The notes under the pieces: generated by a model | The model's input: only the letters and a program-made list of their open reading frames with translations | Told to the model about the DNA's origin: nothing | Database searches by the model: none | NCBI GenBank assembly: GCA_017467185.1 | Contig: JAFTSS010000085.1 | Coordinates: 1 to 64,000 of the forward strand | Reading direction: 5' to 3' | DNA length: 64,000 bases | Origin: Paludibacteraceae bacterium | GTDB taxonomy: Bacteria; Bacteroidota; Bacteroidia; Bacteroidales; Paludibacteraceae | Shown here: one piece after another, positions 47,813 to 64,000 of the stretch | Layout: every line of letters starts with the position of its first letter | Numbering within the stretch: the first letter of the stretch is position 1 | Program-made: the position numbers and the translations under genes

Positions 47813-48508
47813 ATGTATTCTCACATCCTAATCGACCTTGACGACACCCTTTGGGATTTTAAAAAGAATTCCAAAATTGCCATGCAAGAAATATTTAACG
47901 ACTACGAATTAATCAAATATTACGATTCATTCGAGTCGTTTTACGATATATATATGGCAAAAAACCATCAACTTTGGGAGCAATATTCCAAAGGTGAAAT
48001 AACAAAAGACTTCCTTTCGTTAGAGCGTTTTCTCTATCCTTTACGTATAGCTGGTTGCGAAAACATCGAATTAGCAAAAACATTAGGCACCGATTTTCTA
48101 TATCGTACAACCCAACAAACCAACTTAGTCGAAGGAGCAATAGAATTATTAGAATATTTAAAAGAAAAAAAATACAATTTATCTATCATATCAAATGGTT
48201 TCATTGAAGTGCAATATACCAAATTGCGCCGTTCTGGACTATTACCATATTTTTCCAATATATTTTTATCTGAAGAGGTCGGTTATCAAAAACCGGACAT
48301 ACGATTTTTTCAAGCAGTTTTAGCAAAATTAAGTACAAAATCCACAGAATGCATTATTATTGGCGATAATATTCAAACTGATATTCAAGGAGCAAATAAT
48401 GCTAATATAGATGCTATTTTTTATAATAGAGAGGGTTGTGGATTGTTAAATGTTTCATTAGATGCTTGTATAGTTGACAAATTATTGCAAATAAATACCA
48501 TTTTGTGA
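47813..48508 (+). CDS. HAD-IA family hydrolase, YjjG-like pyrimidine 5'-nucleotidase
   Basis: 231 aa with the HAD motifs DLDDTLWDF, ISNG and GDNIQTD. Confidence 0.7.
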   Translation: MYSHILIDLDDTLWDFKKNSKIAMQEIFNDYELIKYYDSFESFYDIYMAKNHQLWEQYSKGEITKDFLSLERFLYPLRIAGCENIELAKTLGTDFLYRTTQQTNLVEGAIELLEYLKEKKYNLSIISNGFIEVQYTKLRRSGLLPYFSNIFLSEEVGYQKPDIRFFQAVLAKLSTKSTECIIIGDNIQTDIQGANNANIDAIFYNREGCGLLNVSLDACIVDKLLQINTIL

Positions 48509-48929
48509 TATTTTGTAATTGTATTTTTATTGGTTTATAAAATGGGAATAAGTTACTTTTTTCTTATATTTTTAGTACTTTTGACTGTAAAAAACATGTT
48601 TTACAACATAAAATGATTTTTTACCGTTTTTGTTGAAAAATATATCTTTTTTGTTGTTTTTGTTGTTTTTTTACCTTTAATTGATTGATATACAATAGCG
48701 TTTTTGCGTTTTTTTATTGCTTTTAATTTGAAAGCAAGAGATTGAATTTTTTGTAAAAAAAAAGAATAAAAAAGTTTTAATAAAAAAAGGTTAGATTTTT
48801 ATTTGCATGTTTGCAGATTATTGTGTAATTTTGCTGACTGAATTTGTGTGCCGTAATGCACACTTGTTTTCGTGGCAAAATTTATCGAAAACTAATTATT
48901 AACATTATTTATAACTAAAAAAAACATTT

Positions 48930-51900
48930 ATGAGAAAGTTAATTCTTTTGTTCTCGGCATTAGTACTTTGTATTGGTGTCGTATTTGGACAGGGAAAAAC
49001 TGTTTCGGGTCGCGTTATCGACGAAAATAACGAACCTGCAATCGGTGCCTCTATCCAGGTGAAAGGAGCGGAAACAGTAGGTACAATTTCCGATTTTGAT
49101 GGTAATTTTACTATTACTCTTCCTTCTGGTACAACTCATCTTATCGTTTCTTATGTGGGTTATACTACAGTTGAACAAGAAGCTGAAGATGGTATGGTTG
49201 TTCGTCTTACTACTGATGCTGAAGTTCTCGACGAAGTTATGGTTGTGGCTTATGGTACATCAACCAAAAAAGCTTTCGCAGGTTCTGCTACTGTGGTTAA
49301 ATCGGAGACTCTCGAAAAGAAAAACCCTACAGACGTATCTAAAGCTCTTGCTGGTGAGGTTGCTGGTGTGCAAGTGGTTTCATCTTCTGGTCAACCAGGT
49401 ACTTCTGCTACTATTCAAATTCGTGGTTTGGGTTCTATTAATGCAAGTTCTGCACCTCTTTATGTTGTCGATGGTGTGCCTTTCGATGGTGACGTTTCTG
49501 CTATTGACCCTTCGGATATAGCTTCTACAACAGTGTTGAAAGATGCTACAGCTACATCTCTTTATGGTTCTCGTGGTGCTAATGGTGTTATCTTGATTAC
49601 CACTAAAAAAGGTACTGCTGGTGATGCTGGTAAAATTGAAGTAGATGTTAAATATGGTGGTAACATGCGCTTAATTCCTTTGCATAATTCAATTACATCT
49701 CCTGAAAAATATATGGAACTTGCATGGGAGTCTATTTATAACCAATATTGGATTGATGGTAAAGCAAATCAAGAGATTGTTGGTAATGTAGGAGGTAAAG
49801 ATTTGACTCAATGGGTTGTTGATGGTATTCCAGCAGCACAGCTTGCTTCTCAAAAATTGTTTGGTAGCAAGGGAATTCCATTTGCTTATAATCGTTGGCA
49901 AAAACCAACTGATCCGCAAGCTGGGTCTCTTATTTATGATCAAAAATTTAAATATGATGACAATACTGGTATGTTGTTGGGTTATAACCCTGATTTTGGT
50001 AAATTCAATTATGCTTATAAACAATATCCAGGCTATGCAACAGATCCAGGTTGGGAAGATGCTCTTTTCCGTACAGGTCAAAAACTTGAGGCTAAAGTTA
50101 ATATTTCTGGTGGCTCTGAAAAGACTACATATTATACATCTTTTGGTTATTTGAGAGATCAAGGTTACTATATCGGTTCTGACTATAGTCGTGTTACAGG
50201 TCGTGTTAATGTTTCTCATGAAGCTAAAAAATGGTTGAAGGGTAGTATGAATATGAACTATTCTTATTCAACATTTGATAATCCAGGTCAAGATGGAGAT
50301 GGAGCTATGAATAATGGTTTCTTCTATGTGAACTCATGTCCTGCTATCTATCCAGTATTCTATTATGATGCAGAAGGTAATCGTATGGCAGACCCTCGTA
50401 TCGAAGGTGAAGATATGTATGACTATGGTGATGCTACTGGACGTACTTTTGGTTATGGTATCAACCCTGCTGGTGCTCTTAAATATGATAAACAACGCAC
50501 AGTTAGTCATCAAGTACTTGGTAATGCAACTTTGGAGGCTACTCTTTATAAGGGGCTTAAATTGAGTGCTAATGTTGGTTTCTTGTATCTTGGTAGTACT
50601 TATTCTAAATTGACAAATAACTATTATGGTGATGCTGCAAGTGTAGGTCGTATTTTGAAACAATCAAGTCATGGCTTTACTCTTAATGCTCTTCAACAAT
50701 TGTCTTATAATAACGATTTTGGTGGTGATCACGACTTTAGCGCTTTTGTTGCTCACGAAACTCGTTATACAAATTCGACAAACGTTTATGGTTACAAATC
50801 GTATATTACAAGACCTGATGGTCTTGAACTTGATAATGCCGTTGTGATGGATGATACTGGTTCTTCTACTTCTGAGCAAACTTTGGAATCTTATTTTGGA
50901 GAGGTTCGTTATCGTTATAAAGAACGTTATGGTATCCATGCTACTCTCCGTGCCGATGGTTCTTCTAAATTTGCTAAAGGTCACCGTTGGGGTACGTTTG
51001 GTGGTGTAGGTGTTACTTGGACTATCTCTAGTGAGGAGTTTATGCAAGGAGTTAACCTTCTTCGCGACCTCAAACTTAAAGCATCTTGGGGTATGCTTGG
51101 TAATCAAGGTATTAGTAGCTATCTTTACACAAATCGTTATTCTATCGTTAATGTTGGTGATATGCCAGGTATTTATCAATCGTTTGCAGGTACACCTGAT
51201 TTAACTTGGGAAAATTCTTCTATGGCTAACGTTGGTGTTGAATTTAATCTTGGTAAATATTTGACTGCAGAAATTGAGTATTATTATAAATATACTTCGG
51301 CTTTGTTGTTCCCTATTGCATTGGCTCCATCTACAGGTTTTTCAACTCGTTATGTAAATGACGCAATGATGGTTAACCAAGGTGTTGATTTCATGTTCAA
51401 TATTCATGCAGTTAATACTAACGCAGTTAAACTTGATATTCGTTTGACAGGTGGTCACGTTACTAATAAGATGACTAAAATGCCTAAAGATGCTCTTGGT
51501 ATAGAGATGGATATGAATGGTTCTATGGCTCTTGGTCACTCTATGCTTGACCTTTATATGCCACACTATTTAGGTGTTAGCAAAAATGGTGAAGCAACAT
51601 ACCAGATGTGGTATGATCCAATCTCTATTGAGGATGGTAGCAAAGTAACTAAAGAAATGGCGGATGCAGACCCTAATAGATATTCTATTTCTTCTGTGCA
51701 TCAATATATCTTGAACTATCATAAAAAGCACCCTAATTTCGATAAGTATATGAAGACGAGTGATCCTTCTTTAATACTTGAATCAACTTCAACAACAGAT
51801 GCTTCTAAAGCTTCAAGTTACTATATTGGAAAATCTCAACTTCCTAAGTTACAAGGTGGTTTCGGTTTTGATTTGTCTGTTTATGGCGTTGAACTTTCTG

Positions 51901-52361
51901 CTTCTTTCCAATATCAACTCGGTGGATATGGTTATGATAACATTTATGCAGGTTTGATGCATAGTGATCTTGTTGGTAAACAAAACTGGCACGAAGATAT
52001 GTACACAAATCGTTGGACAGAAGCTATCGGTGCTGAAATGAAAGAGGGAGAATTGCGTACAGATATTGCTCCTCGTTTGTCTAATGGTTCTGACTTTTAT
52101 GCAAATTCAGCATCTGATCGTTTTGTGATAACTACAAATTATTTATCTTTAGCTAATGTAAGTATTGGTTATTCTTTCCCTAAAAAATGGATGGAAAAAG
52201 CTAAATTAAACTCTTTGCGTTTGTCAGTTGCTGCTGATAACCTCTTCTGTTTGTCTGCTCGTCGTGGATTTATTCCAATGGCTTCTATGTATGGAACTTC
52301 TGATGTTTCGCAATATAGTCCGCTTTCTTCTATAATCGGTACTCTTAAAATTTCGTTCTAA
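48930..52361 (+). CDS. SusC/RagA-family TonB-dependent outer-membrane transporter
   Basis: 1143 aa with a signal peptide, a carboxypeptidase-regulatory-like N-domain, a TonB plug and a C-terminal beta-barrel ending in F. Confidence 0.9.
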   Translation: MRKLILLFSALVLCIGVVFGQGKTVSGRVIDENNEPAIGASIQVKGAETVGTISDFDGNFTITLPSGTTHLIVSYVGYTTVEQEAEDGMVVRLTTDAEVLDEVMVVAYGTSTKKAFAGSATVVKSETLEKKNPTDVSKALAGEVAGVQVVSSSGQPGTSATIQIRGLGSINASSAPLYVVDGVPFDGDVSAIDPSDIASTTVLKDATATSLYGSRGANGVILITTKKGTAGDAGKIEVDVKYGGNMRLIPLHNSITSPEKYMELAWESIYNQYWIDGKANQEIVGNVGGKDLTQWVVDGIPAAQLASQKLFGSKGIPFAYNRWQKPTDPQAGSLIYDQKFKYDDNTGMLLGYNPDFGKFNYAYKQYPGYATDPGWEDALFRTGQKLEAKVNISGGSEKTTYYTSFGYLRDQGYYIGSDYSRVTGRVNVSHEAKKWLKGSMNMNYSYSTFDNPGQDGDGAMNNGFFYVNSCPAIYPVFYYDAEGNRMADPRIEGEDMYDYGDATGRTFGYGINPAGALKYDKQRTVSHQVLGNATLEATLYKGLKLSANVGFLYLGSTYSKLTNNYYGDAASVGRILKQSSHGFTLNALQQLSYNNDFGGDHDFSAFVAHETRYTNSTNVYGYKSYITRPDGLELDNAVVMDDTGSSTSEQTLESYFGEVRYRYKERYGIHATLRADGSSKFAKGHRWGTFGGVGVTWTISSEEFMQGVNLLRDLKLKASWGMLGNQGISSYLYTNRYSIVNVGDMPGIYQSFAGTPDLTWENSSMANVGVEFNLGKYLTAEIEYYYKYTSALLFPIALAPSTGFSTRYVNDAMMVNQGVDFMFNIHAVNTNAVKLDIRLTGGHVTNKMTKMPKDALGIEMDMNGSMALGHSMLDLYMPHYLGVSKNGEATYQMWYDPISIEDGSKVTKEMADADPNRYSISSVHQYILNYHKKHPNFDKYMKTSDPSLILESTSTTDASKASSYYIGKSQLPKLQGGFGFDLSVYGVELSASFQYQLGGYGYDNIYAGLMHSDLVGKQNWHEDMYTNRWTEAIGAEMKEGELRTDIAPRLSNGSDFYANSASDRFVITTNYLSLANVSIGYSFPKKWMEKAKLNSLRLSVAADNLFCLSARRGFIPMASMYGTSDVSQYSPLSSIIGTLKISF

Positions 52362-52387
52362 TTTTAATAATTTAAATATTTGCTAAA

Positions 52388-54016
52388 ATGAAAACTATTA
52401 AAATATTCTTTTTAGGTTTGGCTTTAGTGCTTGGCCTCTCGGCTTGTTCTGACAAGTTTTTGGATACCGAGTTGACAGGTAGCAGTATTACACAAGAGGA
52501 ATTAGATGGTCTTGGTAATACTATGATTGAGCGTGTTCGTGGTTTGTATGCGCTTATGTTCCAATATGGTGGAGACCACCAATCTTTTGGTCAAAAATCT
52601 ATTGATATATCTACTGATATTTTGTCAGGAGATGTAGCTTTAACTAATCCAGGTTATGGCTATTGGTCTTCTTATGCTGCTCGTCTTGCTTATACAAGTG
52701 GAGGATATATTTGGAGTCATCATTATTTAATTGTAGCTAATGCTAATAATATTGTGCGATATTACAATGAATTAGATAGAGCTGATTGGACTTTAACTGA
52801 CTCTTTGTGTTATGCAGAAACACTTACTTTGCGTGCGTATAGTTATTTTAATTTGGGTCACTTCTTCTCTCCATCTCCATCAAATACTGATCCTCAAGTT
52901 TATTCTTCATTGATTACATGTGAAGATGCTACCCGTCGAGAAAATCCTAATGCGATTGTTAATAGACATGACTATTATGTAACTTGTCCTATTTACAAAG
53001 GTGACTCTACAGAGTATAATCCTGAAAATGGATTATTGTATCCTAAAGTGTTATCTGGTATTACTGATGTTTATTCTTTTGTTTTAGAAGACGTTGATGC
53101 TGCAATTGAGTATTTTGAATATTTAGAAACAAAAGCTATTAAACGTGAATCAAAATTGCATGTTAATAAAGAAGTTGCTAGTATTATTGGTGGATACACA
53201 GCCCTTCAATTGGGTCGTTACCATGATAATGCTGATTATTATGAACTTGCTTATAATTATGTTGCTCCTATTCTTGGAGGGGAGTTTGAATTGTTAGAAT
53301 ATGCTAAAGTTTTAGAGACTGGTTTTCATGATGTGACTGATAAGTCATGGATTTGGGGACTTGATGTTACTCGCGAAAATTCTACATCTTTGGCTTCATT
53401 CTGGGGACACATGGATATTCATACTTATTCATACGCAGCAGCTGGTGGTATTTTGGGTATTGATAAAAAACTTTATGAAGAAATTCCTGAAACTGATATT
53501 CGCAGACAATGGTTTAATGCAACAGGTGATTATAATTATTGTCCACAGAATAAATTCTATTTTGGAGATAGAGATACTCGTCATGACCCAATAGCAACTG
53601 GTACATTGAATGGAGTTGACCGTAACTGGTTAAGTGATATCGTTTATATGCGTATTGAAGAGGCTTATTTGCTTGCTGCAGAAGCTGCTTATCGCATGGG
53701 TAATAATGCTGAAGCTAAAAATGTTCTTTCTCAGCTTCTTGTAGAACGTGACCCTACTATTGCTTCTACTTTGACAGATGATAATCTTTTGAAACAACTT
53801 TATTTCAACTGGCGTGTAGAACTTTGGGGCGAAGGTCGTGGTTTATTAACATTTAAACGTTTTGGTTCTGATCTTCCTGATAAATTGCGTGGAGGTAATC
53901 ACTATTATTATCCAGAAAAAGAGATGTCTTATGCCGATCCAGAAGTTACATTTACACTTCCTTCTTCTGAATTTGCTTACAATAATGCTTTGCAACCAGA
54001 TTCTATTGCTAACTAA
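52388..54016 (+). CDS. SusD/RagB-family nutrient-binding lipoprotein
   Basis: 542 aa with a lipobox LSACSD, immediately downstream of the SusC-like gene. Confidence 0.85.
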   Translation: MKTIKIFFLGLALVLGLSACSDKFLDTELTGSSITQEELDGLGNTMIERVRGLYALMFQYGGDHQSFGQKSIDISTDILSGDVALTNPGYGYWSSYAARLAYTSGGYIWSHHYLIVANANNIVRYYNELDRADWTLTDSLCYAETLTLRAYSYFNLGHFFSPSPSNTDPQVYSSLITCEDATRRENPNAIVNRHDYYVTCPIYKGDSTEYNPENGLLYPKVLSGITDVYSFVLEDVDAAIEYFEYLETKAIKRESKLHVNKEVASIIGGYTALQLGRYHDNADYYELAYNYVAPILGGEFELLEYAKVLETGFHDVTDKSWIWGLDVTRENSTSLASFWGHMDIHTYSYAAAGGILGIDKKLYEEIPETDIRRQWFNATGDYNYCPQNKFYFGDRDTRHDPIATGTLNGVDRNWLSDIVYMRIEEAYLLAAEAAYRMGNNAEAKNVLSQLLVERDPTIASTLTDDNLLKQLYFNWRVELWGEGRGLLTFKRFGSDLPDKLRGGNHYYYPEKEMSYADPEVTFTLPSSEFAYNNALQPDSIAN

Positions 54017-54054
54017 TATAATTAATCTTTTATTAACTTAAAATTATTTGAATT

Positions 54055-55356
54055 ATGAAAAAGTTTTTGTTTTTCTTAATGTCTCTTGCTGTTTTTGCTT
54101 TTACAGCATGTGAGGAGCCAGGTTCTGGTAATGCAGGTGGTAATGGTAATGATACTACTAGTGTTTCTAAACCAGCAGAAATTGATCCTAATACAGTTTT
54201 GACTCTTTCTCCAGCAGAGTTTAGTATCACTCCTGGTGAGCAAAAACGTATTACTCCAAATTTGAACCCACAGCCAACAGGTTCTTTCAATATGATTTGG
54301 ACTTCAAGTGATAACAATGTTGCTACTGTAGCTGGTGCTGTTGTTACAGGTGTTGCTTCAGGTAAAGCTACTATTACAGCTCAAATTGAAGGTACAGATA
54401 TTAAAGCTTCTGTATCAGTTAAAGTTGGTACTCCTATAGAAAATGTTGAGTTCTCAAAAGTTCAAATTCTTGGTTATAAAGCAGATATGCTTCCTTTGTC
54501 TGTGAAAGGATTTGATTATGATGAAGAAGGAAATGTTATTAAAGATGAAAATGGTGACACTATTTGGAATGAAATAACTGATATTAATGATGATGGTACA
54601 GATGATTACTTTATTAAAGGTGTCGCTTATATTATGCCTTCTGGTATGACTTATGGTAGTGATGGATTATCTGGAACTTCTGATTATTTAGTTTTTGTTC
54701 AAACTTCTATTATCTTTGATGGTACTTATATTTATCCAGTATGGAATTATAAATTCTCAAGTAATCCGGAAGAATATTTGACTGAAGAAGTTAATGAAGA
54801 AGGTAAACAATGTATGAAATGGAGATATGCAACATATACTAATTTTAGTGAAGAACTTTATGGTAAATATTGGTATAGAGTTATTGCATCTAAAGGTGAC
54901 TGGCCATCTTCTCAAGAGGAATATGATGCATATATGGCAGAAAATTATTATATGGGTGATTTAGATTCTTATGTAGCTTATTTTGTTACACCAGATGATA
55001 AAGAAGCTTATGCAACAATTGGTGGTTTAGTTTCTGGCGGTAGTGGTTTTGGTACTGATCTTGTTGATGGAGAGCTTGTTTTGAGTTATTTGGATATTCA
55101 ATTGGATTTCTTTGATAATTTCGACTTTTATGGTTTAGCTATTGAAGGAGAAGGTGATCAAGCTTCATTTGTTCCAGTAGGAGAAGGTGAAAATGCATAT
55201 TTCAAAATGGCAGATATGATTACTCGTACATTCTCATTCGATAATAGAAGTGCAGCTTCAGCACCTAGAAAAGCTCTTGCTAAAGGTATGACAATGAAAC
55301 GTATGGAAGCTAATATTCTTACAAACCTTCCTATGGTACAAATGCTCCCTCGTTAA
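54055..55356 (+). CDS. surface lipoprotein with Big_2 (bacterial Ig-like) domain; SusE/F-position accessory protein
   Basis: 433 aa with a lipobox FTACEE. It has a Big_2-like segment (SSDNNVATVAGAVVTGVASGKATITAQ). Confidence 0.5.
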   Translation: MKKFLFFLMSLAVFAFTACEEPGSGNAGGNGNDTTSVSKPAEIDPNTVLTLSPAEFSITPGEQKRITPNLNPQPTGSFNMIWTSSDNNVATVAGAVVTGVASGKATITAQIEGTDIKASVSVKVGTPIENVEFSKVQILGYKADMLPLSVKGFDYDEEGNVIKDENGDTIWNEITDINDDGTDDYFIKGVAYIMPSGMTYGSDGLSGTSDYLVFVQTSIIFDGTYIYPVWNYKFSSNPEEYLTEEVNEEGKQCMKWRYATYTNFSEELYGKYWYRVIASKGDWPSSQEEYDAYMAENYYMGDLDSYVAYFVTPDDKEAYATIGGLVSGGSGFGTDLVDGELVLSYLDIQLDFFDNFDFYGLAIEGEGDQASFVPVGEGENAYFKMADMITRTFSFDNRSAASAPRKALAKGMTMKRMEANILTNLPMVQMLPR

Positions 55357-55524
55357 TAAAATAAGTTGTATTTTATTATAATTTAGTCCATCTACATTTG
55401 TAGATGGACTTTTTTTATAAAAAAACATTTTTATTGCTTGTGTAATATATTTTTTTTAATTATCTTTGCAAAATATTAGTATCTGTGTATAATATAAATT
55501 AAATCAATCTTATATCTATCAATT

Positions 55525-58455
55525 ATGAAAAAGTTATTTTCAAGTTTATTCTTGTTATTGTGCCTTTCTGTAATGGTTAAGGCTGTGCCAGCTTATCCTG
55601 GTTTATTAACAAAAACACAACCTGATGGTTCTGTTATTAATTATTATCTTCGAGGTGATGAGATTTTTAATTTCGCAATGTCAGAAGATGGTTATTTGAT
55701 GGTTGCTAATGAAAATGGAATTTTTGAATATGCTGAGTTAAATGACCAAATGGAGGTAGTTTCGGTTGGTATTAAAGTGTCGAATATTGATGATAGAACT
55801 TTAAGAGAGAAACGCTATTTGAAAAATGCCTCTAAAGTTGAGGAACTTGGAATAGAGCTTAATCAAGTAGCTTCAGTTGCACGTGCAAAAAAACAACAAC
55901 GTGCTAATGCTGAATCTAAAGCTCCGGTTAAACGTTATCCTTTGAAAGGTTCGCCTACAAGTTTGGTGATACTTGTTAATTTTACTGATGTTGCATTTAC
56001 TTCTCCAACAGCAAAAGAGGATTTTACTGCGTTGTTGAATCAAGAAAATTATTCTAAAAATGGTGCAACAGGGTCAGCTAAAGATTTCTTTAAAGCTTCT
56101 TCTAATGGTGTATTCCACCCTGATTTTATAGTTGTTGGACCTTATACTTTGCCTAAAGATATGGCTTATTATGGAACGGACTATGGTTCAGGTTCAGATC
56201 GTAATGAAAGTTATGCAGGACAAATGATTATTGATGCTTGTAAGGCTGCTGATGCTGATGTTGATTTTTTAGAGTATGATACTGATGGCAATGGTTATAT
56301 TGATAATGTTTTTGTCTATTATGCTGGATATAATCAAGCAGAAGGAGGTTCTAAAGATGCAGTTTGGCCTCATCGTTCTCAAATTATGGCAAAGCAAAAT
56401 TTTGATGGTGTTTTGCTTAGAGACTATGCTTGTACTTCAGAGTTGAAAGGAAATAGTGGTACAACTATGTGTGGAATTGGTACGTTCTGTCATGAATTTG
56501 GTCACGTGTTAAGTTTACCTGACTTCTATGTAACTGACTATGGTCATAGTGAGCCTACACTTGGAGCTTGGGATGCAATGGATCAAGGTCCTTATAATAA
56601 TGAGGGAAGAACTCCTCCATCATATTCTTCATACGAACGTTTTTTCTTAGGTTGGTTAGAACCTCAAATACTTGAACTCGGAGGTATGTATGAATTGCAA
56701 CCATTAGTGTCATCTAATACAGCCTATATATTGGCAAAAGAGAAACCTAACTTAAATGGTGCACGTCCAACCCCAAATGAGTTTTTTATGATTGAAAATC
56801 GTCAAAAAATAGGTTGGGATTCTGTTGGCCTACCTGGTACTGGCATGTTGGTTACTCATATTGACTGGGATGATAGTAAATGGCGTAGTAATATAGTTAA
56901 TAACACTCCTGATAATATGGGTGTTCAAATAGTTTGTGCTGCAGAAACAACAAGACGACCAGCATATAATACTTTTCCTGGTGATGGAGATGTTTCAACA
57001 TGTTATCTTTCAATGAAAGATGGTTATAAATTTGAAGAACCAATAACAGCAATACAGGAAAAAGAGGATGGAACTATTTCTTTTGTTTATGGGGAGGCTT
57101 TGGATGCTCCTTATATTTCAAAAGAAGGGGATGATATAAGTTATTTTGTGACAGACTATGAAACTGCAATTGTGAAACTTGTTAATTTTAAAGGTCATAA
57201 GTTAGCTCAAAATGTTAAATTTGAGTTAATGATTGGAACTAATTTTAAAATTAGAAAATATGGTGATGAGGATTTTAGGAAATCTGTAAATATTGAGCTT
57301 GCTTCAGATTCTGTGATGGACTTAGTTTTAGAAATTCAATTTAATCCTAAAAAAATTACAAGTGGAGATGATTTGTTAATTGATAGATTGTCTGTTACAA
57401 CTGATAATTATAGCATATTTTATGATATTAAAGGCAAGTCTAATAAGCCTATTAATGTAAAAAAACCAGTAGCATACGAGGCTAAGGATATTACAGAGTC
57501 ATCGTTTATTGCTCATTGGCAAGGACAGCCAAAGGCAACTTGTTATTATCTATCTGTTTATTCTTTGAATAATACTCCTACTTCAGAAACAGAAGAATTT
57601 GCAGTATTCTCAGAAAAAGAAAAACCAGAAGGTTGGGAGGCTAATTTTATTTCAACAAGCTCGTTATATAAATCATCTACTCCGATATCTGTATATTTTA
57701 AAACTGATGCAGATACATTGTGGTCTAAAGAATATTTCTCTAAGGTAGATAAAGTTACTTTGTGGTTACACTCTAATAATACAATTGGTACTTTCTATGT
57801 TGATGGTTTTGTTAATGGAAAATGGATTAATGTATATACAAAAGAGATAACAACATCAGTGAAACGTCAAACAGAATCGTTTGAATTGGGTGCTAATGCT
57901 TGTACTAAGTTTAGAATGTATTATAAGTCAACATCTAATTCTACTGGTGGTGTATGTTTAGATGATTTTGTTGCTGAAACTTATACTTCTCCAGAATTTG
58001 TTTACAATGGTGAGTATTTAGAGTTATATGATACTTTGTTAAATGTAAAAGGTTTGACTAATGATAGATTGTATTACTATAAATTGAGAGCATCAGATAA
58101 AGATTTGCAAGCTGTTTCGGATCCAGATGAACTTATTAGTTCTTATTCTAACGAAATAAAAGTTGATTTGGTTGGTGGTGTCGGTGTTGATAATATTTTT
58201 GGTGACATTTCAGAATTGGTTATTGAATATGCCACTGATGGTTCTGGTGATGTATTTGTTGATTTAGGTGAAACTCCAACTGATATGTCTCGATTGTATA
58301 TATATTCTATTGATGGTCGTTTGGTTAAGACTATTATTCCTGCTGAGCAAAGATTGAAAATCGAAGATCTTGTAGTTAATAATTTGTATATCGTTAAGTA
58401 TTCAAATCAAGGCTCATCGGATAAAACTACTAAAATAGGAAAAGTTGTATATTGA
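55525..58455 (+). CDS. T9SS-secreted zinc metalloprotease, M6 (immune inhibitor A)-like catalytic domain
   Basis: 976 aa with a signal peptide. The zinc-binding motif is HEFGHVLSLPDFY. It has a C-terminal Por secretion tail. Confidence 0.6.
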   Translation: MKKLFSSLFLLLCLSVMVKAVPAYPGLLTKTQPDGSVINYYLRGDEIFNFAMSEDGYLMVANENGIFEYAELNDQMEVVSVGIKVSNIDDRTLREKRYLKNASKVEELGIELNQVASVARAKKQQRANAESKAPVKRYPLKGSPTSLVILVNFTDVAFTSPTAKEDFTALLNQENYSKNGATGSAKDFFKASSNGVFHPDFIVVGPYTLPKDMAYYGTDYGSGSDRNESYAGQMIIDACKAADADVDFLEYDTDGNGYIDNVFVYYAGYNQAEGGSKDAVWPHRSQIMAKQNFDGVLLRDYACTSELKGNSGTTMCGIGTFCHEFGHVLSLPDFYVTDYGHSEPTLGAWDAMDQGPYNNEGRTPPSYSSYERFFLGWLEPQILELGGMYELQPLVSSNTAYILAKEKPNLNGARPTPNEFFMIENRQKIGWDSVGLPGTGMLVTHIDWDDSKWRSNIVNNTPDNMGVQIVCAAETTRRPAYNTFPGDGDVSTCYLSMKDGYKFEEPITAIQEKEDGTISFVYGEALDAPYISKEGDDISYFVTDYETAIVKLVNFKGHKLAQNVKFELMIGTNFKIRKYGDEDFRKSVNIELASDSVMDLVLEIQFNPKKITSGDDLLIDRLSVTTDNYSIFYDIKGKSNKPINVKKPVAYEAKDITESSFIAHWQGQPKATCYYLSVYSLNNTPTSETEEFAVFSEKEKPEGWEANFISTSSLYKSSTPISVYFKTDADTLWSKEYFSKVDKVTLWLHSNNTIGTFYVDGFVNGKWINVYTKEITTSVKRQTESFELGANACTKFRMYYKSTSNSTGGVCLDDFVAETYTSPEFVYNGEYLELYDTLLNVKGLTNDRLYYYKLRASDKDLQAVSDPDELISSYSNEIKVDLVGGVGVDNIFGDISELVIEYATDGSGDVFVDLGETPTDMSRLYIYSIDGRLVKTIIPAEQRLKIEDLVVNNLYIVKYSNQGSSDKTTKIGKVVY

Positions 58456-58525
58456 TTTTTTAGTATTTAAATAAATATGAAGGGGAACTTTTGTTTAAGG
58501 TTCCCCTTTATAAAATAATTGCTTT

Positions 58526-60955
58526 ATGAAAAAAATAGTGTCATTATTGCTAATTGTATTTTTGTCTTGTAATTTGTCTTATGCAGTAAAGGCTTATCCT
58601 GGATTGATTACTCATCAACAACCAGATGGTTCTCTTATAAAGTATTATCTTAAGGGTGATGAAAATTATAGTTATATGGTTTCAGAGGATGGCTATTTAT
58701 TAACATATAATGAAGATGGTTTCTTAGTTTATGGAGAGTTGTGTATTAAAAAAGGAATCGTAAAACCAGCAAAAAAAAGGGTTAAGGCTTTATCTGTTTC
58801 TCGTCAATTAGATAGTCTATTTAATTTGAATGTAGGAAAAGTATATTCTGCACAGAAAAGGGCATTTACTAATGTTGGTTATCCTCGTACAGGTTCTCCT
58901 AAAAGTTTGGTGATTTTGGTTAATTTTTCTGATGTGAAGTTTAAATCACCTACAGCAAATCAGGATTTTGTTGATTTGTTAAATAAGTATAATTATTCTC
59001 AAAATGGGGCTACTGGCTCGGCTCGTGATTATTTTCGTAATGCTTCGAATGGAGTGTTTGAACCAGAGTTTGTAGTTGTAGGACCATACGATCTACCTAA
59101 TGAAATGAAATTTTATGGAGAAGATACGGATGATCGTCACGATAAGTATGCTGGAAATATGATTGTTGATGCTTGTAAAGCTGCTGATGTAGATATTGAC
59201 TTTAATGATTTTGATGAAAATAAAGATGGCGCTATTGATAATGTCTTTGTTTATTATGCGGGTCATAATCAAGCAGAGGGCGCAGGTGTTAATACCGTTT
59301 GGCCACATCGTTCGTATATTTTGCCTAAAAATGATATTCGCTTTGATGGTGTATTGTTAGGTGATTATGCGTGTACTTCTGAACTTAAAGGTTCAAGTGG
59401 TAATTATATGTGTGGTATTGGTACTTTTGTGCATGAATTTGGTCATGTGTTGTCTTTGCCAGATTTGTATGATACTCAATATTCAGGGCATAAAACATTA
59501 GGCTCTTGGGATGTTATGGATAATGGTTCATATAATAATGGCGGTCGAACTCCGCCAACATATTCAGCATACGAACGATTTTATCTTGATTGGATGACTC
59601 CAAAGCAATTAACGAATGATATGAAAATTGAATTACAACCTATTTCAATAAGTAATACAGCTTATTTGGTTGCAGAATCAGAACATAACTTGGACGGAGC
59701 AAATCCTAATCCAACAGAATTTTTTATGTTGGAAAATCGTTGTCAAGTTAATAATGATGGAGTTTTGGCTAATGGCCTTTTGATAACACGAATTAGGTAT
59801 GGTAATGGAAAGAAATGGAGTAATAATGTTGTTAATAATAATCCTAATGATATGGGTGTTGTGATTTGTTGTGCTGCTGGAGATACAGATGAACCGCCAT
59901 TAAATATTTTCCCTGGGGGAAGACGTGTTACTGATTTTACTTTTAAAATGTGGGATGGTACTATTTTAGATAAAAAGTTATCGCAGATTTCGAAGGAAAG
60001 AGATAATTCTGTTTCTTTTGTTTATGGAGTCCCTCAAACTATACCTACAATTGAAATTCAAACAGATGGTGATTTAGATAATTTTGTCGCTATGTTGGGA
60101 GAAGAACAAATTCAGAGGGTTTCAATTTTGGGTAATGCTGTTGATGGTAATTTGGATGTAAATTTAGATGCAAATTGTTTTTCTGTGCGTTTGGCTGATA
60201 CTGATGATGATTTTGTTAAAAGTATCTCTTTAAAATCTAATGTTGATAGTATTGTTGATGCTACCATTGAGATAAAATATACACCTCAAGATTATACGTA
60301 TAGTAATTATTCTTTTGGAGTATTATCTTTAAATACCAATTGTTTTGAAAAAAATATTATTTTAAAGGCTCGTACACCTCGTCCTATTTATGTAGTACCA
60401 CCTGTGGCTTGTGATGCGGAAGAGGTTAGCCCTTATACTTTTACTGCGGTGTGGGATACTGTATTTGATGCTACGGAATATTTGTTGTCGGTTTATAATC
60501 TTGTGGGTAATGATACTTCGTTTGTTCTTAAAAATCATGTCGTGAAGGCTGATAAATTGAATAAAATGAGGTGTGAGGTTGCTAATTTGTTAGGTGGAAC
60601 GGATTATAAATATCGAGTTAAGGCTTCAGATAAAGACCCGTATGGTCGTTATGAGAATATAACTGATTATTCTAATGAGATATCGGTTACTACTTTGCCT
60701 GGTTATGGTGTTGAAAGTCGTAAATTGGATGTATTGAAAGATGGTGATAAATATATGATTTATTTGCCTGTTGTGGATGAAAATCATAGTATATTTGTTT
60801 ATTCACTTGAGGGACATTTGATTACTTCTGTGCCTGTTTTGTATAATATTGTTGAGTTGCCTGTGCTTGCATCAAATAGGGTATATATTTTGAAGTATGC
60901 ATCGAATGATGGTTTAAAACGTAAATCGAAGGTTATTAAGTTATATTACGAATAA
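58526..60955 (+). CDS. T9SS-secreted zinc metalloprotease, paralog of the preceding gene
   Basis: 809 aa. Its N-terminal region (AYPGLxTxxQPDGS) and HEFGHVLSLPDLY catalytic region match the preceding gene. It has a C-terminal sorting domain. Confidence 0.6.
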   Translation: MKKIVSLLLIVFLSCNLSYAVKAYPGLITHQQPDGSLIKYYLKGDENYSYMVSEDGYLLTYNEDGFLVYGELCIKKGIVKPAKKRVKALSVSRQLDSLFNLNVGKVYSAQKRAFTNVGYPRTGSPKSLVILVNFSDVKFKSPTANQDFVDLLNKYNYSQNGATGSARDYFRNASNGVFEPEFVVVGPYDLPNEMKFYGEDTDDRHDKYAGNMIVDACKAADVDIDFNDFDENKDGAIDNVFVYYAGHNQAEGAGVNTVWPHRSYILPKNDIRFDGVLLGDYACTSELKGSSGNYMCGIGTFVHEFGHVLSLPDLYDTQYSGHKTLGSWDVMDNGSYNNGGRTPPTYSAYERFYLDWMTPKQLTNDMKIELQPISISNTAYLVAESEHNLDGANPNPTEFFMLENRCQVNNDGVLANGLLITRIRYGNGKKWSNNVVNNNPNDMGVVICCAAGDTDEPPLNIFPGGRRVTDFTFKMWDGTILDKKLSQISKERDNSVSFVYGVPQTIPTIEIQTDGDLDNFVAMLGEEQIQRVSILGNAVDGNLDVNLDANCFSVRLADTDDDFVKSISLKSNVDSIVDATIEIKYTPQDYTYSNYSFGVLSLNTNCFEKNIILKARTPRPIYVVPPVACDAEEVSPYTFTAVWDTVFDATEYLLSVYNLVGNDTSFVLKNHVVKADKLNKMRCEVANLLGGTDYKYRVKASDKDPYGRYENITDYSNEISVTTLPGYGVESRKLDVLKDGDKYMIYLPVVDENHSIFVYSLEGHLITSVPVLYNIVELPVLASNRVYILKYASNDGLKRKSKVIKLYYE

Positions 60956-60988: not shown

Positions 60989-61594
60989 TTAAGTGAGCGT
61001 TTTTAGTATAAAGCCTTGTGCTTTTAGCCAAATTATTATGGTTTCTAATATTTGTAGGGTACGAGGAGCTGCTTTTATAGAGTCGTGCATTACTATGATT
61101 GAACCTTGGCGGGTGTAGTTTTTGACTACATCAAATACCTTGTCTGGCGAATGGTTGCTGTCCCAATCATAGGTAATTACATCCCATTGGATTATTTTGT
61201 AACCCTTATTGCGTAACATGCTGTTTTGTCGGGGTGTTATCAATCCATGTGGTGGGCGAAATAGGTTATTACCAACAAGGGCTGCACATTCGTCTATTTC
61301 GTTGATATAATCGTTTGTATTTGTGTAAAACCCTTTGGAGTGGTGCATCGTGTGGTTGCCTACTTGATGTCCTTCTGCTTTGATTTGTGCAAATAATTCG
61401 GGGTGTTTTAGTATATTGTCGCCAACGCAGAAAAATGTTGCTTTTACGTTGTGTTTGCGCAGTATATCTAAAATTATAGGTGTTGTTTCGGCACAAGGTC
61501 CATCATCAAATGTAAGATATACATTATGTCCAGCAGTAGGTATGTTATATACTGCTGGACATAATAGTTTTAATATTTTATTCGGTTGATACAA
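60989..61594 (-). CDS. polysaccharide deacetylase (NodB-homology, CE4 family)
   Basis: 201 aa with the motifs TFDDGP and HTMHH. Confidence 0.75.
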   Translation of the reverse strand: MYQPNKILKLLCPAVYNIPTAGHNVYLTFDDGPCAETTPIILDILRKHNVKATFFCVGDNILKHPELFAQIKAEGHQVGNHTMHHSKGFYTNTNDYINEIDECAALVGNNLFRPPHGLITPRQNSMLRNKGYKIIQWDVITYDWDSNHSPDKVFDVVKNYTRQGSIIVMHDSIKAAPRTLQILETIIIWLKAQGFILKTLT

Positions 61595-61844: not shown

Positions 61845-62168
61845 TTATTTTAATTTTTTGATAATTTTGACTTTAGAACCATTGAAAACATTATCGGATT
61901 GTTTGATAATTTCAGAATAATTTTCATCTATAAATTCGCATATTTGTTTAATTTCTTTATTAGACAAACCATCATTATAGGCTATCTCAAAATTTTTATT
62001 ACCATTTTTTTCAATCCAAATTTTTGCAGAACAATTAGATTTATTTTTTGTTCGAGTTTTATACACATGTATATGTCTTCGTTCTCCTTTATCCGTAGGA
62101 ATAACTGACAAGAAAAAAGCAATTAGTTGAGCGATGATTCCAATTATTTTGTTTTTTTGTATGTGCAA
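61845..62168 (-). CDS. DUF4160-family small protein
   Basis: 107 aa. The core HIHVYK...AKIWIE resembles the DUF4160 signature. The N-terminus is possibly over-extended. Confidence 0.5.
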   Translation of the reverse strand: MHIQKNKIIGIIAQLIAFFLSVIPTDKGERRHIHVYKTRTKNKSNCSAKIWIEKNGNKNFEIAYNDGLSNKEIKQICEFIDENYSEIIKQSDNVFNGSKVKIIKKLK

Positions 62169-62226: not shown

Positions 62227-64000
62227 TTATTGATTTGCTAATGGATAATATTTTTGCAAGTTTTCTTCGAGTTCGGTTGTTAGACCAGAGTTATAGTTTC
62301 TTGCAGTCATCCAAAGATTTTGTATCAAGCCAACATTCTGACGTATTGATAATTCTTGTGATACACGTTTGCGTTTTTTTGTATCCAACGAATTTACCCA
62401 TTCTATTTTTTGAATGCAATCGTCGAGTAATGGGCGTGTTAAGTTGTCGGCTTTTTCAGTTTGACCGAGTTCGTAATAATATCCAGCCAACATAGCAGTA
62501 CTATAATCGGCAGGTACAGAGGTAGTAGGTATTACTTCCATACATTTGTCAAGTACAGCAAGAGCTTTTTCTGTTTGACCTTCATTGATTAAAGCTTCGG
62601 CTAATTGGCCAAACATCATACGCATTGTGCGTGACATACGGATATGTTGTTCGTCGAGATATACGTTAGGATCTGCGATGTTGCCCCATACGAATTTGTT
62701 CATCATATTGTCGTACATAGCTTCAGTATTTACACGTTCTGGGCGGCCTTTTACAGGTACAATACGATAGGCAAGACCTTCTAATTGCATATATTCTTGA
62801 AGAGCAGGGTAGTATTCGCTACCTACTGTTGCTGCCACATATATTGGGCGTTCCCAATTGTTAGAGTTGAGCATTTCAAGAACCATAAGTTGTGCTTTGC
62901 CTACAGAACGACCAAGTTTAATTTGCATTTGGTCAACAATGAGGTTGGTGTCTTTATCTGCAACTGCTCCAGATTTGATAACTTGTTGTTTGTCAACAGG
63001 AAGAATCATATTAGAACTAAAGAATGTACCAATACCATTATCGTCAATAGTTTTTGGATTTCGTACAAGGTCGAGGGCTTGACCGAGTTCCATACCATTT
63101 TTGAATTGTGGGTGGTCAGATACGCGACAAACATCAAGGTGTCCTGATACATAGTCTTTTTTCTCCCACGAGATTGGTAGTGGAGCAGAAGTATATGCTT
63201 CACGTTTCATTTGATCGATATACCAATCTGTGTTGAGATAAGAGAGGTTACATACGCGCATGTCGGTACGATTTTCTTCTACTTCTTGATTGTACCAAAG
63301 AGGGAATGTGTCGTTGTCTCCATTTGAGAAGATTATTGAATTAGGTGCGCAACTATTGAGGTAGTTAAGACCAAAATCGCGAGCGACACGGCGATTAGAG
63401 CGATCGTGGTCGTCCCAGTTTTGTTGAGCCATAAGGGCTGGAACACCGAGGCAGCAGATTGTTACTATAATTGCAGCCAAAGGTTTTGGCATGAATTTTT
63501 TAATGAGAGAGTAGAAGAACATCACACCAAGACCAATCCATATTGAGAATGCATAGAACGAAGCTGCGTATGCATAGTCGCGTTCGCGAGGTTGATATGG
63601 CGTTTGGTTGAGGTACATTACAATGGCAAGACCAGTCATAAAGAATAGAACAAAGACGAGCCAGAATTGCAAATTACCTTGTTTTTTGTTGCATAATTGC
63701 CATGCTATACCGAGTAAACCAAGTAACAATGGAAGCATGAAGTAACGGTTGCGACCTTTGTTGTTTTTGAGTGAATCAGGCAAAGAGTCTTGATCGCCGA
63801 GGCGTGCATTATCGAGGAATGATATACCTGAAATCCAGTTTCCTTTGTCTAATTCGCCATGACCTTGAATGTCGTTTTGGCGACCTGCAAAGTTCCACAT
63901 GAAGTAGCGCCAGTACATGAAGTTGACTTGATATGAGAAGAAGAAACGGAGGTTTTCGCCGAATGTAGGCATTACAAGAGTTTCTTGACGTCCGCAGCGG
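62227..64000 (-). CDS. DUF2723-family membrane protein (GT-C-like, putative protein O-mannosyltransferase-like); 5' end beyond the window
   Basis: The ORF stays open to the window edge. It has multiple TM helices followed by a large soluble C-terminal TPR-like region. Confidence 0.6.
   Translation of the reverse strand, partial: RCGRQETLVMPTFGENLRFFFSYQVNFMYWRYFMWNFAGRQNDIQGHGELDKGNWISGISFLDNARLGDQDSLPDSLKNNKGRNRYFMLPLLLGLLGIAWQLCNKKQGNLQFWLVFVLFFMTGLAIVMYLNQTPYQPRERDYAYAASFYAFSIWIGLGVMFFYSLIKKFMPKPLAAIIVTICCLGVPALMAQQNWDDHDRSNRRVARDFGLNYLNSCAPNSIIFSNGDNDTFPLWYNQEVEENRTDMRVCNLSYLNTDWYIDQMKREAYTSAPLPISWEKKDYVSGHLDVCRVSDHPQFKNGMELGQALDLVRNPKTIDDNGIGTFFSSNMILPVDKQQVIKSGAVADKDTNLIVDQMQIKLGRSVGKAQLMVLEMLNSNNWERPIYVAATVGSEYYPALQEYMQLEGLAYRIVPVKGRPERVNTEAMYDNMMNKFVWGNIADPNVYLDEQHIRMSRTMRMMFGQLAEALINEGQTEKALAVLDKCMEVIPTTSVPADYSTAMLAGYYYELGQTEKADNLTRPLLDDCIQKIEWVNSLDTKKRKRVSQELSIRQNVGLIQNLWMTARNYNSGLTTELEENLQKYYPLANQ

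Follow-up and report, generated by a model that had tools for sequence, protein, structure and literature searches.

Why a SusC/SusD pair should be followed by two secreted metalloproteases, where glycoside hydrolases would be expected, is the question raised by a locus in the 64,000-nucleotide window of a Paludibacteraceae genome (a gut member of the Bacteroidales; the window being the whole stretch of DNA analysed). The answer favoured here, with a probability of roughly 0.6, is that the locus follows the Sus paradigm but serves the utilisation of protein (polypeptide). Such a protein-harvesting version of the sugar loci is considered most likely because the SusCD-protease pairing recurs in many related bacteria. 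The concept itself is already published (PMC6499787, PMC11467351, PMC5993710), and the present locus is a new example with a predicted function.

Protein fermentation by gut Bacteroidales affects nitrogen flow and metabolite production, and few genetic modules for it have been defined. The main worked example is RagAB with the gingipains of an oral pathogen, where the proteases are unlinked to the importer. The SusC-SusD-lipoprotein-protease cassette is compact and conserved, and numerous metagenome contigs of gut and rumen type carry it; it would offer a testable model of protein harvest by commensals, and also a simple annotation marker for protein-targeting Sus loci, which catalogues of polysaccharide utilisation loci (PULs) now list merely as peptidase-bearing, with the substrate unassigned.

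Importer and protease genes

The sequence-only reading of this DNA had described SusC-like, SusD-like and Big_2 lipoprotein genes followed on one strand by two M6 paralogues, and the five open reading frames are indeed found on the + strand where it had placed them:

48930..52361, +: SusC/RagA-family TonB-dependent outer-membrane transporter, 1143 aa (TIGR04056, TIGR04057, PF07715, PF13715)
52388..54016, +: SusD/RagB-family surface lipoprotein, 542 aa (PF07980; lipobox LSAC)
54055..55356, +: Big_2 lipoprotein, 433 aa (PF02368, 31 bits; lipobox FTAC)
55525..58455, +: M6-A, predicted secreted M6 (thuringilysin/InhA-type) zinc endopeptidase, 976 aa (TIGR03296, PF05547)
56491..56529, +: zinc-binding motif of M6-A, HEFGHVLSLPDFY, aa 323-335 (H323, E324, H327, D333)
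57592..58029, +: jelly-roll insert in the FN3 region of M6-A, ~aa 690-835, not in M6-B
58207..58452, +: M6-A C-terminal domain, probably a diverged T9SS sorting domain of type A (TIGR04183 sub-threshold)
58526..60955, +: M6-B, predicted M6 paralogue without the jelly-roll insert, 809 aa (TIGR03296, PF05547)
59432-59470, +: zinc motif of M6-B in translation, HEFGHVLSLPDLY, aa 303-315
~60713-60952, +: C-terminal sorting-like domain of M6-B (TIGR04183 and NF033708 below cut-off)

SusC matches TIGR04056 over its full length (686.7 bits, E 6.8e-206; cut-off 368.25) and the signature TIGR04057 (60.7 bits; cut-off 46.2), and carries a Plug domain (PF07715) and an N-terminal CarboxypepD_reg-like domain (PF13715); its predicted role would be to import an oligomeric substrate with the help of TonB. 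SusD, identical to NCBI MBQ8722371.1, scores 32.5 bits against PF07980 (cut-off 23.1) and matches the SusD-like structure 3lew (E 1e-12); PF14322, present in most SusD homologues, falls below cut-off in it. In the third protein Cys19 is followed by EE, a disordered linker, a Big_2 Ig-like domain (~45-125) and a beta-rich C-terminal domain of ~270 aa without recognisable relatives. Both lipoproteins would be exposed at the cell surface, the Big_2 protein presumably as a substrate-binding partner of SusCD.

The protease homology proposed earlier was upheld by profile searches, in which M6-A and M6-B are well above cut-off with TIGR03296 (190.8 and 188.5 bits, respectively; cut-off 110.8) and with PF05547 (69.5 and 62.7 bits; cut-off 22), and the M6 catalytic fold superposes on InhA2, as expected of family members. 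The two share 46.7% identity across 675 aa, and M6-B is identical to NCBI MBQ8722374.1. The zinc motif ascribed to both paralogues was located in each, and its H, E, H and D show no variation across 49 M6 homologues. The catalytic residues are intact, and both proteins are predicted endopeptidases. The M6 motif has been defined as HExxHxxGxxD, with Asp as the third ligand (PMC12237041); the Gly position (330 in M6-A) is Ser in both proteases, a residue found in 3 of the 49 family members (G in 36, E in 8, D in 2), and this substitution counts against the protein-utilisation reading. M6-A begins with a putative signal peptide (1-20) and a beta-domain with a long helix (21-135), possibly a prodomain, after which come the catalytic region (~140-525), an Ig-like domain (530-640), an FN3 domain with the inserted jelly-roll (~650-880) and a C-terminal beta-sandwich (895-976 in the predicted model). 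The insert belongs to the MAM/gingipain cleaved-adhesin/CBM-like fold class, its best structural match being the Kgp K1 cleaved-adhesin domain, and may hold the substrate. Since this fold is also found in carbohydrate-binding modules, that substrate could bear glycans.

Sec-type N-termini are seen by eye in both protease translations. The T9SS C-terminal domains claimed for both paralogues stand only in weakened form: TIGR04183 remains sub-threshold (20.2-20.4 bits in M6-A, 14.5 bits in M6-B; cut-off 23), as does the type-C model NF033708 in M6-B (19.5 bits), and none of the 49 M6 homologues matches PF18962, but 21 of 26 family C-termini do match TIGR04183 with E<=1, the best at 1.7e-5, and profile-profile alignment by hhalign places them in register with canonical C-terminal domains (CTDs; prob 39%, E 3e-4). 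They are probable sorting domains, although their falling short of curated thresholds counts against the protein-utilisation reading. No T9SS gene was seen among the window ORFs scanned; among relatives, components of the system or its canonical cargo do occur, as PF17116 in one locus (L003) and as PF18962 proteins in five (L019, L020, L042, L171 and L172).

That proteases stand in the place of glycoside hydrolases was also borne out. A Pfam domain scan of the window cluster returned no GH, PL or CBM, the latter being absent also from the accessory regions of its proteins, and no glycoside hydrolase or lyase occurs in the cluster of any Pfam-annotated relative. By the strict definition of a PUL, i.e. 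susCD with CAZymes, this locus has susCD and lacks CAZymes. The sole CAZy-type gene nearby lies beyond M6-B and is not retained beside the cluster in three relatives (L001, L089 and L090):

60989-61594, opposite strand to the cluster: CE4-like Polysacc_deac_1

Transcription units and regulatory signals

Whether importer and proteases would be expressed together depends on the signals found around and between the genes:

48826..48833, +: TAATTTTG, candidate -7 box of a Bacteroidetes-type promoter (TAnnTTTG; consensus match only), ~97 nt 5' of susC
55385..55417, +: intrinsic terminator after the susC-susD-lipoprotein unit, 11-bp stem, 4-nt loop and T7 run
55461..55468, +: candidate Bacteroidetes -7 box TATCTTTG, 57 nt 5' of M6-A
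58476..58512, +: RNA hairpin between M6-A and M6-B, 16 bp, with no clean U-tract

The gap from susC to susD, the next gene, is 26 nt. The terminator 3' of the lipoprotein gene (RNA fold -17.1 kcal/mol, z -7.5) has counterparts at the corresponding site: among 78 non-redundant relatives, 34 show a perfect hairpin with a T-run there, built from 29 distinct stems, against 1.65% of random windows; TAnnTTTG is found at -120..-25 in 62 of the 78, against 6% of random windows. Because the lipoprotein gene is followed by a terminator and M6-A is preceded by a -7 box, the two proteases probably form a transcription unit apart from susC-susD-lipoprotein. Within that unit, transcription probably continues through the intergenic hairpin (-22.2 kcal/mol, z -5.3) into M6-B, as just 13 nt are left before the M6-B start.

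Co-transcription of the proteases with susC/susD, which the sequence-only reading had set as a test of its proposal, is therefore not what the DNA suggests, a strong terminator and a Bacteroidetes promoter box intervening here and recurring in relatives. With a terminator and a separate promoter between importer and proteases, co-expression is not guaranteed, and any co-regulation of the two units would be presumptive. This arrangement counts against the protein-utilisation reading, as does the absence of a regulator from the locus: no dedicated regulator (HTCS, ECF sigma/anti-sigma with STN-SusC, SusR) is encoded among the flanking genes, and a profile search of SusC returned no STN signalling domain.

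Conserved linkage and its possible meanings

The linkage was assessed by anchoring independently on SusD homologues (32-81% identity) in metagenome loci, 37 of which had sufficient sequence 3' of susD. Of these 37, 34 have an M6 gene 0.14-1.8 kb downstream, after susD and the lipoprotein gene and in the same orientation, and the adjacency of SusCD and M6 is far above chance. The order SusCD-lipoprotein-protease persists to ~32% SusD identity and 29-31% M6 identity, and genomic contexts differ: TP_methylase and HAD lie upstream and the deacetylase downstream of the cluster in the window, while in L089 and L090 it is preceded by FeS-assembly and MazG genes, with a tRNA synthetase or GlgP on its downstream side. 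In distant versions of the cluster C10 and M16 peptidases are either added to M6 or found in its place: within the same SusCD clade, L171 and L172 encode a C10 peptidase with a PF18962 T9SS tail and another locus (L155) has two C10 genes, whereas in a Parabacteroides locus (L088) an M16 protein of 961 aa with a signal peptide follows SusD. The idea of a protein-targeting locus is sustained by this conserved linkage, by the lack of CAZymes and by the joining or replacement of M6 by other peptidases, and RagAB and the susCD loci of B. fragilis (below) offer precedents of function; co-transcription, however, is improbable and the T9SS tails are below threshold.

If the protein-utilisation reading is right, both M6 zinc endopeptidases would be exported by Sec and, most likely by type IX secretion, reach the cell surface or the medium, where they would cut extracellular proteins to oligopeptides. 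These would be caught at the surface by the SusD-like and Big_2 lipoproteins and brought into the periplasm by the SusC-like TonB-dependent barrel, importer and protease genes acting as two neighbouring units with a terminator and a promoter between them. A bolder version, to which we give a low probability, makes this locus the type example of a dedicated proteolytic utilisome that is widespread among gut and rumen Bacteroidales. T9SS-anchored endopeptidases (M6, and C10 in some lineages) would use their cleaved-adhesin/MAM-like and Ig/FN3 domains to dock onto a specialised complex of SusCD and lipoprotein, and the steps of capturing protein, cutting it and importing the peptides would be physically coupled. 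If true, glycan utilisomes would have a genetically encoded counterpart for protein, which could also mark proteolytic niches in gut metagenomes.

It is rather unlikely that the true substrate is a glycoprotein, with the proteases opening glycosylated host or dietary protein, SusCD taking up glycopeptides or glycans and the required glycosidases being encoded elsewhere, on the model of the M60-like peptidases in mucin PULs. Against it stand a cluster without CAZymes in every annotated relative, variable partner enzymes that are peptidases only (M6, C10, M16) across the clade, window proteins without a CBM Pfam domain, and a jelly-roll insert that best matches a gingipain cleaved-adhesin domain, a protein binder. 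Similarly improbable is that the proteases are independent factors, acting in InhA-like immune evasion or competition beside an unrelated SusCD, their adjacency being inherited synteny. Muribaculaceae M6 proteases have been interpreted as immune-related (PMC4936053), and this explanation would also accommodate the promoter and terminator upstream of M6-A, the synteny of upstream housekeeping genes (TP_methylase, HAD, PIF1) in close relatives and the M6 homologues (35-40% identity) that mostly stand alone in environmental Paludibacter genomes, the last of which counts against the protein-utilisation reading. However, the adjacency holds across altered flanks down to the lowest identities given above, and unrelated secreted peptidases fill the same slot; drift alone is therefore hard to credit. 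There is very little to recommend a SusCD devoted not to bulk nutrition but to a specific protein or peptide (a ButCD-like uptake of a signal or antimicrobial) or to export of the protease, like that of PopC by the Oar TBDT of Myxococcus, with the proteases processing the cargo: the ButCD locus, whose importer takes up a ubiquitin-like toxin, does include a zinc metalloprotease gene, and TBDT-dependent protease secretion has been described (PMC11467351, citing Gomez-Santos 2019), but the proteases here have signals of their own (Sec signal peptide and CTD-like tail), the ButC-like structures 8ypt and 8ypu (E 1e-49) are much more distant from this SusC than generic SusCs are, and a duplicated set of large, multidomain endopeptidases that includes an adhesin-like domain suits bulk degradation better.

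Relation to known systems

In Porphyromonas gingivalis, RagAB takes up peptides made by gingipains (10.1101/755678), combining, as the present locus may do, SusC/SusD-type peptide import with surface or secreted proteases bearing T9SS CTDs and cleaved-adhesin domains; the differences are that the window proteases are M6 metallopeptidases encoded beside the importer and that a Big_2 lipoprotein is added. Orthology was considered and rejected: the best PDB matches of SusC are a glycan SusC (8aa4, E 4e-96) and RagA (6sli, E 8e-91), the latter being no better, and RagB is not matched by SusD at E<=0.01. With no specific relationship to RagA or RagB, the window pair is taken as an analogue, by which RagAB identity, but not RagAB-like working, is weakened; in sequence terms this too counts against the protein-utilisation reading.

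Closer in gene content are the B. fragilis susCD loci with metallopeptidases, for which polypeptide transport has been proposed and where ButCD imports a 76-aa protein (PMC11467351); peptidase-bearing susCD loci are also counted in PULDB surveys (PMC6499787). Such Bacteroides loci share with the window metal-dependent peptidase genes and the lack of CAZymes, but in the ButCD type the peptidase is ZnMc rather than M6. Mucin O-glycan PULs (e.g. of B. thetaiotaomicron; PMC11992087) contain M60-like or other glycoprotein peptidases, and so have metallopeptidases inside Sus-like loci as well. Those PULs are rich in glycosidases and sulfatases too, and the peptidases in them are glycan-dependent gluzincins that carry CBMs, as opposed to the CAZyme-free M6 cluster studied here.

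The kin of the proteases themselves are InhA/thuringilysin (MEROPS M6; Bacillus InhA1/InhA2, Vibrio PrtV), with respect to which M6-A and M6-B add Bacteroidetes-type Ig, FN3, jelly-roll insert and CTD-like tail, carry Ser for the motif Gly and have a Sus-type genomic partner. InhA substrates include antimicrobial peptides and matrix proteins, which need not hold for the window proteases.

The classical PULs and outer-membrane utilisomes (Sus, levan, dextran) follow the logic proposed for this locus, encoding together an extracellular depolymerase, surface binding lipoproteins and a SusCD importer. In the window the depolymerases are peptidases instead of CAZymes, are not lipoproteins and probably form their own transcription unit, with no HTCS, ECF-anti-sigma or SusR in the locus. 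A PUL with T9SS-secreted enzymes is known in the chitin locus of F. johnsoniae.

The cassette and its chromosomal setting

The five same-strand open reading frames that the sequence-only reading had placed at 48930-60955 (+) were recovered with exactly the same coordinates, in a chromosomal stretch whose GC content is low (about 33-40% across the window). Proteins encoded in the window match entries of a Paludibacteraceae metagenome-assembled genome exactly (MBQ8722371.1, MBQ8722373.1 and MBQ8722374.1), the nearest relatives being Candidatus Aphodosoma, a genus of gut Bacteroidales. The cassette, in gene order, and the gene converging on it are as follows.

Products of the cassette and of the converging gene
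48930-60955 (+), gene 1: SusC-like TBDT, 1143 aa; TIGR04056 686.7 bits; Plug and CarboxypepD_reg-like N-terminus, no STN domain
48930-60955 (+), gene 2: SusD-like lipoprotein, 542 aa; PF07980 above cut-off; lipobox LSAC
48930-60955 (+), gene 3: Big_2 lipoprotein, 433 aa; Cys19 followed by EE
48930-60955 (+), genes 4 and 5: metalloproteases M6-A and M6-B, 976 and 809 aa; TIGR03296 190.8 and 188.5 bits (cut-off 110.8)
60989-61594 (-): polysaccharide deacetylase, CE4-type, 201 aa; converges on M6-B across a 33-nt gap

In the reading favoured here, the M6 endopeptidases, secreted or held at the surface, would cut extracellular protein, the cleavage products would be bound by SusD and the Big_2 lipoprotein, and SusC would take them up using TonB. 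A structure search with the Big_2 lipoprotein returned the Big_2 (Ig) domain as its sole match, and none for the C-terminal domain.

The deacetylase gene adjoins the cassette in close relatives (L085-L087 and L091; L numbers denote homologous loci in other genomes or metagenomes), but not in distant ones, and was ruled out as a CAZyme of the locus, being on the opposite strand and not conserved with the cassette. Also beside the cassette in close relatives stays a gene on the minus strand (62227-63972), which runs off the end of the window and encodes the C-terminal part of a membrane protein of about 1071 aa, TMEM260-like (protein O-mannosyltransferase-like) with TPR regions, an assignment taken from L085 and L091, where the locus is identical. 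Between these two genes, a DUF4160 protein (61845-62168, -) and, just downstream, an ORF of about 78 aa, called in L085-L087, form a pair resembling a small toxin-antitoxin-type module. A gene for CstA (40865-42142, +), of the carbon-starvation peptide/pyruvate transporter family, is found some 7 kb 5' of susC; in another Paludibacteraceae genome a stand-alone M6 homologue is followed by a GTPase gene and then by CstA (L003 14285-15733; L004 4545-5993). CstA might serve as the inner-membrane step in the uptake of peptides, or its position might be a coincidence.

Linkage of SusCD to peptidases

When homologous loci were collected with the protease as the anchor, some 28 of the 83 genome loci showed the order SusC-SusD-lipoprotein-M6(-M6), the M6 homologues of environmental Paludibacter being mostly stand-alone. 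This linkage is weak by itself, because upstream housekeeping genes are also syntenic in close relatives, and the search was therefore restarted from SusD. Among 79 metagenome loci with SusD homologues of 32-81% identity, 37 extend at least 3.5 kb downstream, and 34 of these carry an M6 gene on the same strand 0.14-1.8 kb past SusD (L122, flagged automatically as an exception, is counted among the positives: it has two susCD pairs in tandem, and its M6 gene follows the second). That the proteases are independent, and mere neighbours of SusCD, would suit the stand-alone homologues, and is improbable given the SusD-anchored count. The cassette is also found in differing surroundings, of which L089 and L090 are annotated examples.

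More tellingly for the pairing than these differing surroundings, other peptidases occupy the same slot. Between the genes for the lipoprotein and M6, L172 and L171 encode a C10 cysteine peptidase that has an I69 prodomain and ends in a canonical PF18962 tail; L155 has two C10 genes and no M6; and in Parabacteroides sp. PFB2-10 (L088) a 961-aa M16 peptidase with a signal peptide is encoded directly 3' of SusD. The M16 evidence is limited to this last protein: in 20 of the 29 distant loci (L089 5096-6325, L090 5188-6450 and 18 more metagenome loci) susC is immediately preceded by a gene for an M16 protein of about 410 aa, with a HYIEH motif, but, lacking a signal peptide and being absent from the window, this protein was left uncounted; its gene may be a housekeeping gene retained in synteny. 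In a variant of the cassette (L019 6869-9795, L020 6846-9814, L042 6770-9594, L024 and L081) two genes separate SusD from M6, one for a lipoprotein of 312-326 aa (with a Cleaved_Adhesin domain match in L042), the other for a protein of 616-649 aa with a canonical Por_Secre_tail and a weakly CBM_4_9-like N-terminus. As for the substrate, no CAZyme was found in the cassette wherever the neighbours were annotated, and a glycoprotein or glycopeptide is an unlikely target; a specific protein cargo, or a role in export, is very improbable.

Several bins of one project (L020, L032, L042, L059 and L061; isolates H07xxx-L1_cleanbin) carry Paludibacteraceae-like M6 or SusCD loci under the labels Segatella copri, Leyella stercorea, Flexilinea sp., Firmicutes bacterium CAG:95 and uncultured Clostridium, so that the labels look unreliable, or the bins contaminated.

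Protein degradation coupled to SusCD import in this way would follow the same logic as RagAB with the gingipains (10.1101/755678) and as the peptidase-bearing susCD loci of B. fragilis, proposed for polypeptide transport (PMC11467351), although the SusCD pair of the window is by sequence distinct from both RagAB and ButCD. CAZymes are lacking from about half of all susC/D loci, and 11% of those have sulfatases or peptidases (PMC6499787); peptidase-linked PULs of Prevotella were earlier interpreted as protein-degrading, according to work cited in PMC5993710, and M6 proteases have already been noted in Muribaculaceae (PMC4936053). A literature search for an M6-linked SusCD cassette, for a peptide/protein utilization locus and for immune inhibitor A with SusC found no relevant paper. 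The M6-linked cassette is, then, uncharacterised and has good comparative support, while the concept of peptidase-bearing susCD loci is already known.

Transcription units

The gaps within the cassette measure 26 nt (susC-susD), 38 nt (susD-lipoprotein) and 168 nt (lipoprotein-M6-A). The last contains a hairpin (55385-55417, -17.1 kcal/mol, z -7.5) with a GC-containing stem of 11 bp and a T7 run, and 3' of it TATCTTTG, which matches the Bacteroidetes -7 box TAnnTTTG. Both features recur: of 78 non-redundant syntenic loci, 34 show a perfect hairpin of 8 bp or more with a T-run within 300 nt 5' of the M6 start, with 29 different stem sequences (random windows, 1.65%), and TAnnTTTG lies at -120 to -25 in 62 of the 78 (random windows, 6%). 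Terminator hairpin, promoter box and their recurrence argue that importer and protease genes are most likely separate transcription units, with read-through into the M6 genes being possible. The sequence-only reading had made its proposal depend on co-transcription or co-regulation of the proteases with susC/susD; on co-transcription it probably has to be revised, a terminator hairpin and a candidate promoter box lying between the importer genes and M6-A. As to co-regulation, a search for an operator motif common to the upstream regions of susC, M6-A and M6-B gave AT-rich low-complexity matches alone, and hence did not point to a regulator site shared by the three, and no regulator gene was found among the flanking genes.

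Between M6-A and M6-B, a 16-bp RNA hairpin without a clean U-tract (58476-58512, -22.2 kcal/mol, z -5.3) ends just 13 nt from the M6-B start. Since it leaves no room for a promoter, the two genes probably share one transcript, and the hairpin could attenuate or stabilise it and set the A:B expression ratio. A hairpin in the susC leader (48846-48863) was discarded as not significant (z -1.75). The length of the region upstream of susC is itself uncertain, because so is the true start of the preceding HAD hydrolase (47813-48508, +): the ORF gives 231 aa from the first ATG, and on identical contigs (L084 and L087) gene callers choose a later start, giving 208 aa.

Protease fold and secretion route

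The zinc motif HEFGHVLSLPD(F/L)Y, as had been read from the sequence, is found in both M6-A and M6-B, which are 46.7% identical over 675 aa. H323, E324, H327 and D333 are invariant in all 49 homologues, and the motif of M6-A fits the metzincin consensus HExxHxxG/NxxH/D with Asp as the third ligand, as used by the thuringilysins (PMC12237041). At the Gly position of the motif both proteases have Ser, which is uncommon among the homologues (G 36, E 8, S 3, D 2). The M6 fold is genuine, and M6-B is no member of the T9SS-dependent M6-like inactivated metalloproteases (NF052323), as its score is 44 bits where the cut-off is 600 and its catalytic residues are intact. M6-A is made up, in order, of signal peptide, N-terminal beta-domain with a long helix (possibly a prodomain), catalytic domain, Ig-like domain, FN3 with inserted jelly-roll and C-terminal beta-sandwich; Pfam at E<=1 gave a weak fn3 match and nothing else for the accessory regions (N-terminal, Ig and FN3/insert, and the C-terminal region of the lipoprotein).

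The T9SS C-terminal sorting domains (CTDs) attributed to both proteases are probable. TIGR04183 scored 20.2-20.4 bits for M6-A and 14.5 bits for M6-B, below the cut-off of 23, and PF18962 matched none of the 49 homologues, whereas the tails of the family resemble CTDs: 21 of 26 C-termini matched TIGR04183 at E<=1, and the M6-family tail profile aligned in register with canonical CTDs of proteins encoded nearby in related loci (hhalign probability 39%, E 3e-4). T9SS cargo or components are clearly present in relatives, and routing of the M6 proteases via T9SS is likely. Elsewhere in the window, a BspA-type leucine-rich-repeat surface protein of 620 aa is encoded at 9855-11717 (-) (PF13306, E 7.5e-72); proteins of this type are often T9SS cargo in Bacteroidales.
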